Assembly (NCBI GenBank): GCA_963826115.1
Contig: CAWGVS010000011.1
Coordinates: forward strand, 174,820-238,819
DNA length: 64,000 bases
Origin: an uncultured Candidatus Rokubacteria bacterium
GTDB lineage: Bacteria > Methylomirabilota > Methylomirabilia > Rokubacteriales > DASRDR01
Direction of reading: 5' to 3'
Part shown: positions 31,411 through 33,704 of the stretch, one piece after another
Layout: each line of letters opens with the position of its first letter
Numbering within the stretch: the first letter of the stretch is position 1
Program-made: the position numbers and the translations under genes
The notes under the pieces: generated by a model
The model's database searches: none
What the model was told of the DNA's origin: nothing
What the model saw: the letters and a program-made list of their open reading frames with translations, nothing else

Positions 31411-32316
31411 ATGGAGTCAGCGGACGACGTCCGAGCGAGCCTTGCCGTTGCCCCGCTCGGGGACCTTCGCCCGCACGAGGCCACCTCCCCGGACGGTGAG
31501 TCCCGCGTGGCTGATCTCCTCGGGGCCGCGCGCGTTCTGTCCTGGCCGCTCGTCGTGGATGCCGCGTCCGGGCTGATCCTGGATGGGAGCCATCGCGCCG
31601 TCGTCCTCGCCCGCGACTTCGGCGCGCGCTTCGCCGTGATCCAGCGGGTCGACCTCGACTCGCCGGACGTACGCATCGGAACCTGGTGCCGCGTGCTCGA
31701 GAGCGTGCCCGCCGCCGCCTTCGACGCCGCCCGCCGCGCGCTCGGGCTCGAGGTCGGCGCGGAGGGAGGCCTCCGATGTCACTACGGCGACCGTGTCTAC
31801 GGCCGGCCCGGGCCCCAGGCGTCGGATCCTCACGCTCTGGCGAGTGAGGTCGAGCGACTCGTCTCACGGAACGGCCGCCGGCGCCCGCCGCGTCTGGTCG
31901 AGGACGAGGTGATCGCCGAGTGGCTGGCTGCGGCCGACGTCGTCGTCTTGCGTCCGCCGGCGCTCGACAAGCCAACCGTGCGCGAGCGGGCGGCCGGTCC
32001 GCTCCTGCCGCCAAAGTCGACCCGCTTCCTCTTGCCGTACCGGGTGCTCGGGCTTGCCGTGCCGCTCGCGGCGCTCGGGGGACCGCGAGCGGGGCTCGTG
32101 GCCGAGGTCGAGCGCGAGCGGGCGCGGCCGCTTGCGTGCCTGGGGGACGGGCTGGCCGTCGACCGGCACTACCCCGAGCGGCTCTGGCAGTTCGCCGACC
32201 ATCGAATTCCCGACAATCTCTTCGCGGACGAGGCGGGACGCCACGCATACGCGGACGCGCTCGCGCGGGCGACGTTCCCGGATCCGGCGCGACCCGGCCC
32301 ACGCCGTCAAGGCTGA
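31411..32316 (+). CDS. ParB/Srx-fold protein resembling free L-serine kinases SerK/SbnI
   Basis: LRPHE, PLVVD...[13 protein letters not shown]-terminal LLPPKSTRF. Confidence 0.65.
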
Positions 32317-32339
32317 ATCCAAGGCAGAAGGAGGCTCCC

Positions 32340-33704
32340 GTGGCCCAGACCAAGTTCGTGCTGGACGAGAAGGACCTGCCGAGCCGCTGGTACAACATCC
32401 AGGCGGACCTGCCGGCGCCGCTCCCGCCGGTGATCCACCCGGGCACGCTCCAGCCCATCGGCCCCCAGGACCTCGCGCCGCTGTTCCCGATGGAGATCAT
32501 CAAGCAGGAGGTGAGCCAGGAGCGGTGGATCGACATCCCCGAGCCGGTGCGGGACGTCTACCGGCTCTGGCGGCCGACGCCCCTCTACCGCGCCCACCGC
32601 CTGGAGAAGGCGCTCGGGACGCCCGCGCGCATCTACTACAAGTGGGAGGGCGTGTCGCCCGCCGGGAGCCACAAGCCCAACACCGCGGTCGCCCAGGCCT
32701 ACTACAACCACCAGGAGGGCGTCCGCCGCATCACGACGGAGACGGGCGCGGGGCAGTGGGGCTCGGCGCTGTCGTTCGCCTGCCAGATCTTCGGGATCGA
32801 GTGCAAGGTCTACATGGTGCGGGTCTCCTACGACCAGAAGCCGTACCGGCGGATCATGATGGAAGCGTGGGGCGGCCAGGTAGTGGCGAGCCCGTCTCGC
32901 GAGACTGCGGCCGGCCGCGCGATTCTTGCGAAGGACCCGCAGTCGCCGGGAAGCCTCGGCATCGCGATCTCGGAAGCGGTCGAGGAGGCGGCCCAGCGCG
33001 AGGACACGAAGTACTCGCTCGGTTCGGTGCTGAACCACGTGCTGACGCACCAGACGGTGATCGGGCTGGAGGCCCAGCGGCAGCTCGAGATGGCGGGCGA
33101 CCGTCCGGACATCCTCGTCGGCTGCATCGGGGGCGGCTCGAACTTCGGCGGGTTCACGTTCCCCTTCCTCCAGGACAAGCTGAACGGGCGGTGGAAGGAC
33201 CTTCGCGTCATCGCCGTCGAGCCCCAGGCGACTCCGAGCCTCACCAAGGGCGAGTACGTCTACGACTTCGGTGACACCGGACAGATGACGCCGCTGATCA
33301 AGATGTACACCCTCGGCCACTCCTTCATCCCGGCGCCGATCCATGCGGGGGGCCTCCGCTACCACGGCATGGCTCCTCTGGTGTGCGCGCTCTACGACCA
33401 CAAGGTGATCGAGGCGGTGGCCGTCCACCAGAACCCCACCTTCGAGGCGGCGCTGACGTTCGCGCGGGCGGAAGGGTTCCTGCCGGCGCCCGAGGCGGCT
33501 CACGCGATCCGGGTCGTCATCGACGAGGCGCTCCGCTGCAAGGCCTCGGGGGACCGGAAGGTCATCGCCTTCAACTTCTGCGGCCACGGCCACTTCGACC
33601 TCTCCGCCTACGAGCGCTACATGACGGGCAAGCTCGAGGACTTCGAGTACCCCGCGGCGGAGGTGAAGGCGGCGCTGGCGGGGCTTCCGAAGGTCAAGGT
33701 TTAG
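32340..33704 (+). CDS. trpB2: Tryptophan synthase beta chain type 2 (TrpB2)
   Basis: [26 protein letters not shown] (PLP Lys), [40 protein letters not shown]. Confidence 0.95.

Follow-up and report, generated by a model that had tools for sequence, protein, structure and literature searches.

The window analyzed here, by which we mean the whole 64,000-nucleotide (nt) stretch of contig CAWGVS010000011.1 from an uncultured Candidatus Rokubacteria bacterium, carries two closely spaced genes on its forward strand. The first (31411..32316, + strand; ATG start, TGA stop at 32314-32316) codes for a 301-residue protein that we predict to be a kinase of the SerK/SbnI family; the second (32340..33704, + strand; GTG start) is trpB2, coding for a 454-residue stand-alone TrpB-like pyridoxal phosphate (PLP) enzyme, as assigned by NCBIfam, PDB and dN/dS (ratio of nonsynonymous to synonymous substitution rates) comparisons. 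The 23-nt gap between them contains a Shine-Dalgarno-like element, AGAAGGAGG (32326..32334, + strand; read from the sequence), placed 5 nt 5' of the trpB2 GTG. An earlier prediction made from the bare DNA (hereinafter the original prediction) had described the same layout, namely a 301-residue open reading frame (ORF) followed after 23 nt by a trpB2 gene with a strong ribosome-binding site on the same strand, and all of it is present in the sequence. We regard the ATG at 31411 as the correct kinase start, despite the reading frame being open further 5' from 31012, because 28/29 aligned homologues of the ORF share a start at the MES/IES motif.

Sequence comparisons identify the predicted product of the second gene as an unambiguous TrpB2: it scores 748.4 bits on the NCBIfam model NF009057 (cut-off 366) and 670.7 bits on TIGR01415 (cut-off 518.85), and it matches the Sulfolobus TrpB2 chains 6hul_B, 4qys_B and 6hte_B over nearly the full length of the window protein (1.7e-136 for 6hul_B and 2.5e-115 for 4qys_B, the range among PDB TrpB2 chains extending to 3.6e-115). 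A preference of TrpB2 enzymes for O-phosphoserine is attributed to Busch et al. 2014 in PMC11917138. The absence of trpA or any other trp gene from the window, as originally claimed, is borne out among the ORFs scanned, i.e. 39 window ORFs searched with NCBIfam (E <= 1e-25; a selected, non-exhaustive set of at least 120 residues and with G+C at third codon positions, GC3, of at least 0.8) and 11 ORFs near the pair searched with Pfam; the canonical trpB1-trpA pair of the genome is located on another contig (C4:210363-212190). Some features of the assemblies should be mentioned at this point. The trpB2 gene of the congener G008 (locus L011) matches as two segments read in separate frames (residues 1-259 and 260-454), owing either to a frameshift or to a misassembly. 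Furthermore, the contig bearing the window (C11, 239 kb) matches the end of contig C5 (G000:C5:1913185-2124945) colinearly at ~78-88% DNA identity over 71% of the length of C11, such that the assembly of the window genome contains two kinase-trpB2 pairs. With an estimated contamination of 5.3%, a bin holding two related genomes seems likelier here than a duplication.

Single-sequence searches proved too weak to place the kinase protein, recovering SerK chains from the PDB at E 0.17, and profiles were therefore required. Relatives are plentiful: 87 were found in a word-indexed collection, none with an informative name, and an exhaustive search recovered 378 cluster representatives of the family at E <= 0.001. 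A profile of 30 close homologues, when searched against the PDB, recovered SerK (5x0b, 9.5e-13), SbnI (5uje, 2e-11) and nothing else, and a profile of 60 diverse representatives likewise recovered SerK and SbnI chains only (1vk1, 2.5e-37; 5x0b, 7.4e-37; 5uje, 2.2e-23), in an end-to-end match covering chain residues 20-241 of 242. Of these representatives, 59/60 match the NCBIfam SerK model NF053625 and 51/60 the SbnI model. We then used VIA-align to compare 48,161 PDB representative chains with an AlphaFold model derived from the alignment of 60 rows (predicted local distance difference test score, pLDDT, 95.0; predicted template-modeling score, pTM, 0.90). In the modeled protein, a ParB/Srx-like domain at the N terminus is followed by a middle alpha/beta domain, the KSTR segment and an extension at the C terminus, and the best structural match of the protein is staphylococcal SbnI (PDB 5ujd, 5uje, 6nr6), C-terminal extension included: 5ujd_A aligns with model residues 4-268 at Z 21.5 and a root-mean-square deviation (rmsd) of 2.6 over 239/254 residues, with 15% identity. 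SerK (5x0b_A) aligns with model residues 1-223 (Z 17.4, rmsd 3.0, 215/241 residues), whereas sulfiredoxin reaches Z 6.1 and ParB-type proteins 5.2 or less, so that the ORF does not model as a DNA-binding ParB or a sulfiredoxin. The family assignment of the original prediction is thus upheld by both the homologue profiles and the predicted fold, and the protein, as modeled, belongs to the SerK/SbnI lineage as a remote member, structurally closer to SbnI; we call it a distant relative and not an equivalog because its scores fall below the curated family cut-offs.

Certain relatives and partial matches of this fold are worth recording in their own right. A 76-residue N-terminal portion of the O-phosphoserine sulfhydrylase 1wkv_A aligns weakly with the ParB-like domain of the model (Z 4.6, 73 residues, spanning model residues 12-226), a score below the level that means kinship. 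One homologue, P0167 (510 residues), combines a CofC/MobA-like nucleotidyltransferase domain (22-199) with a SerK-like domain (246-471), and P0222 (498 residues) has an N-terminal half without assignment.

The sequence motifs named in the original prediction (PHE, DGxHR, TW and PKSTR) are all found, as P21-H22-E23, D58-G59-S60-H61-R62, T91-W92 and P200-P201-K202-S203-T204-R205, with their key residues invariant or nearly so. Across the 30 close homologues, H22, E23, D58, G59, H61, R62, W92, K202, T204 and R205 are invariant; across the 60 diverse representatives the first seven remain invariant and K202, T204 and R205 are conserved, invariant or nearly so. In the alignment E23 corresponds to E30 of Thermococcus kodakarensis SerK (Tk-SerK), which we take to be the catalytic base and at which PDB entries 5x0j and 5x0k have Gln, and the D58-G59-x-H61-R62 segment aligns with D69-G70-H71-H72-R73 of 5x0b. 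The C-terminal extension bears a further DRxYxE motif (R252, Y254, E256), which is conserved family-wide and is structurally matched in SbnI. The ORF is a real gene and not a chance frame because its dN/dS against 8 orthologues is 0.15-0.26, the corresponding value for trpB2 being 0.06-0.09.

Next we considered gene-neighborhood information. The kinase gene occurs in 14/41 related genomes, namely that of the window (G000), 12/14 other congeners and one genome of another family, and trpB2 lies directly 3' of it in 15/15 loci of these 14 genomes; linkage of this kind counts for little, being among kin. The association with trpB2 also extends well past these close kin and occurs in either gene order. 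Three other genera have a kinase only 40-50% identical to that of the window, and there too trpB2 is directly downstream. A motif scan of species genomes returned 120 loci, comprising 85 true family members, mostly archaeal (Micrarchaeota, Bathyarchaeia, Nitrososphaeria, Thermoproteota), and 35 chance matches; the 8 kb examined at each of the 85 holds no TrpB-like gene, in a scan that is biased against the window's own clade because at the DNA level it recovers only members with PPK(S/T)TRH..P.R. A metagenome scan yielded 80 loci with a family ORF in every one. We pooled 169 family ORFs that the profile covers almost completely, 15 duplicate loci and partial-cover ORFs having been excluded; in this tally the kinase precedes trpB2 in 23, trpB2 precedes the kinase in 14, 83 are unlinked with at least 700 nt visible on both sides, and 49 are cut by a contig end.

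The 14 reverse-order loci are on archaeal contigs with at least 4 different flanks, their neighbors including TIP49, S25e and DUF2070, and they form two clades, one of full-length proteins of ~220 residues and the other of 'mini' proteins of ~213 residues, in which the N-terminal domain and the (K/R)STRH segment are kept and ~100 middle positions are gone. In 8/9 loci of the 'mini' clade, the ninth being without upstream DNA, a gene for a TrpY-family regulator (184 bits, cut-off 180) is located divergently upstream of trpB2; this neighbor is an independent tie of the 'mini' pair to tryptophan. Phylogenetic trees strongly support each of the three trpB2-linked clades (99-100). FastTree on 120 rows places every one of the 37 linked rows to the same side of a branch (support 95), and IQ-TREE on 49 chosen rows does not unite the three clades; the trees have long branches, and their rows were drawn by two different sampling motifs. 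Paired encoding of the kinase and the PLP enzyme is conserved in 23 + 14 of the 120 judged ORFs, across three deep clades.

Based on homology, fold, conserved residues, purifying selection and this recurrent linkage, we propose as the probable function of the pair that the kinase makes O-phosphoserine from serine and that TrpB2 condenses it with indole to form tryptophan. The two genes would constitute a small operon, the first product of which is predicted to act as a free L-serine kinase like SerK and SbnI, employing the conserved E23 as its base, with the DGxHR and KxTR segments holding the nucleotide-Mg and the substrate. It would convert L-serine to O-phospho-L-serine, and TrpB2, using PLP, would then convert O-phosphoserine and indole to L-tryptophan and phosphate. 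In this manner the kinase may supply TrpB2 with its own pool of activated serine, improving indole capture without being essential to it. We infer the use of serine as the substrate, the phosphate donor, the co-transcription of the two genes and the delivery of phosphoserine to TrpB2.

Several observations weigh against this proposal. At the level of the protein, Pfam gives no family for the kinase at E <= 1, ParB_N and SerK_C included; its score on the NCBIfam SerK equivalog model NF053625 is 15.7 bits (E 0.006) against a cut-off of 380; and the window's clade has Phe206 where SerK and most of the family have His after KxTR. A search for longer homologues that might be fusion proteins gave 3, all of them read-through or frameshift artefacts, which is weak evidence of absence. 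With respect to genomic context, 83/120 judged family members do not adjoin trpB2. Within the phylum, TrpB2 exceeds its cut-off in 146/251 genomes and the kinase is present in 16. There is no kinase within 1.5 kb at 25 of the phylum's 30 best TrpB2 loci; 4 of the 30 have the kinase, all from the same genus, and 1 is cut at a contig start, where the last 32 kinase positions are seen in the related-genome search. The unpublished genome G244 is among those counted. The kinase also evolves faster, at 68-91% identity as against 93-97% for TrpB2. Among congeners, G002 (L255) lacks exactly the segment corresponding to 31365-32318, so that the TPR gene directly abuts the trpB2 leader, and G004 (L013) lacks that corresponding to 31715-32296 (582 nt), such that approximately the first 100 kinase codons remain. 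Finally, no sign of a Trp-sensing leader, a promoter or a terminator was found at the pair, with zero sigma-70 and terminator matches, in scans that fit high-G+C DNA poorly. In both the kinase-less G002 and the kinase-truncated G004, trpB2 is ~90% DNA-identical to that of the window, and TrpB2 therefore functions, or is at the least retained, when the kinase is missing. From these sequence comparisons, the kinase is to be viewed as a dispensable accessory to TrpB2, given the predominance of kinase-free TrpB2 in the phylum together with this deletion and truncation.

The serine pathway of the host was also considered, as the original prediction held that the pair would render tryptophan formation independent of SerA/SerC. 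In the 99%-complete genome of the window, no SerB, SerC_1, SerC_3 or long phosphoglycerate dehydrogenase exceeds its cut-off; class-V aminotransferases account for 22 matches in the same genome and 2-hydroxyacid dehydrogenases for 23. SerB over cut-off is found in 0/41 relatives irrespective of the presence of the kinase, and we accordingly rejected kinase-SerB complementarity as evidence. Thus, of the central claim that a serine kinase feeds TrpB2, the SerK/SbnI affinity and the recurrent linkage hold, whereas self-containment and independence from SerA/SerC are not established, SerB being equally missing from kinase-less relatives and many aminotransferases and dehydrogenases being present. 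As for expression, five RNA-library runs contain 5-7% of the sampled words; at 85% likeness, RNA contigs cover the trpB2 of relatives in 4/4 runs, and short RNA-library pieces fall on the kinase gene in runs X16 and X18; DNA carry-over is possible in these RNA data. No RNA-library contig among the matches listed bridges the kinase-trpB2 junction, and DNA-library matches amount to small shares, 0.20 or less.

The neighbors of the unlinked relatives bear on a different and unlikely explanation, under which the kinase would act on another substrate, such as threonine, homoserine or some other hydroxy compound, or it would make phosphoserine that goes into serine assimilation or cysteine synthesis, the two genes lying together only because they share their control. 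Most members of the family lack a trpB2 link, and a survey of 66 nearest-neighbor ORFs from 45 unlinked loci recovered short SerA-like 2-hydroxyacid dehydrogenases (4 loci), class-V, SerC-like aminotransferases (4 loci), cofactor-independent phosphoglycerate mutase or 'proposed homoserine kinase' proteins (6 loci), seryl-tRNA synthetase (2 loci), SerB-like HAD phosphatases (2 loci) and cysteinyl-tRNA synthetase (1 locus); the sister group of the window's kinase clade (support 96) also adjoins the seryl-tRNA synthetase gene. These associations agree with the serK neighborhoods of Desulfurococcales described in PMC5120207; they fit a role for the whole family in the metabolism of serine and phosphoserine, and they also count in favor of the function proposed above for the pair. 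According to the same work SerK itself serves cysteine synthesis and serine assimilation, and the replacement of the conserved His by F206 would also be in line with the other explanation. What speaks for tryptophan over these other destinations is the tie of three deep clades to trpB2, in two orders and with varying flanks, the TrpY-type regulator adjoining one of them, and the absence of cysteine-synthase or serA/serC-type genes adjoining the pair among the scanned window ORFs.

Some of the unlinked loci display further conserved arrangements. In six archaeal loci (L136, L060, L178, L185, L037, L100) a SerK-like gene is found beside a gene of the cofactor-independent phosphoglycerate mutase family, with a gene of ~380-500 residues lacking a family assignment in between in 4 of the six; the mutase-family gene of L136 exceeds the apgM cut-off as well as that of TIGR02535, the 'proposed homoserine kinase' model. 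A row of four genes at L173:2567-6584 codes for a tyrosyl-tRNA synthetase, a SerK-like protein, a SerB-like HAD phosphatase (132 bits against a cut-off of 144) and a seryl-tRNA synthetase.

We deem it slightly less probable still that the kinase-like protein is mainly a regulator or nucleotide-binding switch that controls either the expression of trpB2 or the activity of its product, whether or not it also works as a kinase. This possibility is raised by its nearest structure, SbnI (Z 21.5), which PDB and NCBIfam describe as a bifunctional regulator and O-phosphoserine synthase and with which, and not with SerK, it has the C-terminal extension (226-268) in common, and by the frequent use of the ParB fold in NTP switches, CTP being bound by one SerK-like protein (PMC12704722). 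Against it, neither Pfam nor NCBIfam detects a helix-turn-helix or other DNA-binding family in the protein, the catalytic-type residues are invariant in 60 diverse members, and a distinct, dedicated regulator, TrpY, accompanies the archaeal pairs. That the gene is a decaying passenger without present function in the window organism is highly improbable: its loss from G002, truncation in G004, faster divergence than trpB2 and lower GC3 (0.85 versus 0.92-0.95 in neighboring genes) might suggest as much, but the dN/dS over 8 orthologues, the intact ORF with invariant motif residues and the confident AlphaFold model all argue otherwise.

Around the pair, ORF and Pfam scans identified a TPR protein gene (30006-31358) as the 5' neighbor of the kinase gene and a Phd/YefM antitoxin and PIN toxin pair (33848-34530) between trpB2 and an acyl-CoA dehydrogenase gene. 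In four sister genera trpB2 is directly followed by the acyl-CoA dehydrogenase gene, without Phd/YefM-PIN, and the toxin-antitoxin pair therefore looks inserted. No Rfam element was recovered at the locus, where the single match, to a miRNA, is a chance one (E 0.93). Elsewhere in the window, a 752-residue ORF (10534-12792) scores 1166 bits on a bifunctional salicylyl-CoA 5-hydroxylase/oxidoreductase model (cut-off 1078), its neighbors being genes for a CoA-transferase, an acyl-CoA dehydrogenase and an ABC transporter.

The closest known parallel to the proposed arrangement is that of SbnI and SbnA, in which the gene for a free-serine kinase likewise sits beside that for a fold-type II PLP enzyme, SbnA, which uses O-phosphoserine. 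The window kinase is, however, only 15% identical to SbnI and under the NCBIfam cut-offs, its partner is TrpB2 and not SbnA, and siderophore genes were not found near the pair among the scanned window ORFs. The SerK proteins (Thermococcus kodakarensis TK0378, 5x0b; PF0380, 1vk1) have in common with the window kinase the fold, PHE, DGxHR, the Trp and KxTR, and differ from it in that the latter is bacterial, has Phe after KxTR and carries ~60 extra C-terminal residues with DRxYxE. SerK is an ADP-dependent kinase of free L-serine whose product feeds an O-phosphoserine (OPS)-dependent CysK, and clear SerK homologues were not found in bacteria by Makino et al., as stated in PMC5120207. A further analog is SerBK (DUF1015), proposed in GapMind 2026 (PMC13759103) as a serine kinase/phosphatase substitute; it is likewise an unannotated relative of SbnI by fold and linked to phosphoserine by neighborhood, but belongs to a different family, associated there with serA/serC and serine synthesis or use and not with TrpB2. 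By analogy, the kinase-TrpB2 logic would copy that of SbnI-SbnA and SerK-CysK, with TrpB2 as a new partner.

Consistent with the original prediction, which knew of no described kinase-TrpB2 pairing, we found no report that pairs a serine kinase with TrpB2 or tryptophan synthase in the literature searched, supplements excepted. Similarly, that literature describes no kinase partner for the characterized TrpB2 enzymes, and works on TrpB2 with phosphoserine mention no kinase in the portions available. Neither the ParB-fold survey (PMC12704722) nor the available text of GapMind 2026 (PMC13759103) mentions TrpB2 or tryptophan, and the co-mention of TrpB2 and ParB in the literature is unrelated, judging by the title.

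Extending the proposal beyond the window, we tentatively posit that phosphoserine supplied on demand by a dedicated free-serine kinase could be the in vivo substrate of TrpB2, and that this route was perhaps assembled more than once, as bacterial kinase-trpB2 pairs and as two archaeal trpB2-kinase lineages, one of them the 'mini' form under a TrpY-type regulator, giving a widespread, Trp-regulated system of indole capture; we are less confident of this than of the function proposed for the window pair. TrpB2 is widespread, being found in 146/251 genomes of this phylum, and the presence next to trpB2, in unrelated microbes, of a gene for a serine kinase dedicated to it offers a concrete and easily testable answer as to the source of its phosphoserine and its purpose. 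If true, the very small set of free-serine kinases, comprising archaeal SerK and staphylococcal SbnI, would extend to soil bacteria and many uncultured archaea, and TrpB2 would become the third partner, after the OPS-dependent cysteine synthase and SbnA, in a scheme whereby serine is phosphorylated and the phosphate then replaced. The resulting indole-capture pathway would be a previously undescribed one.

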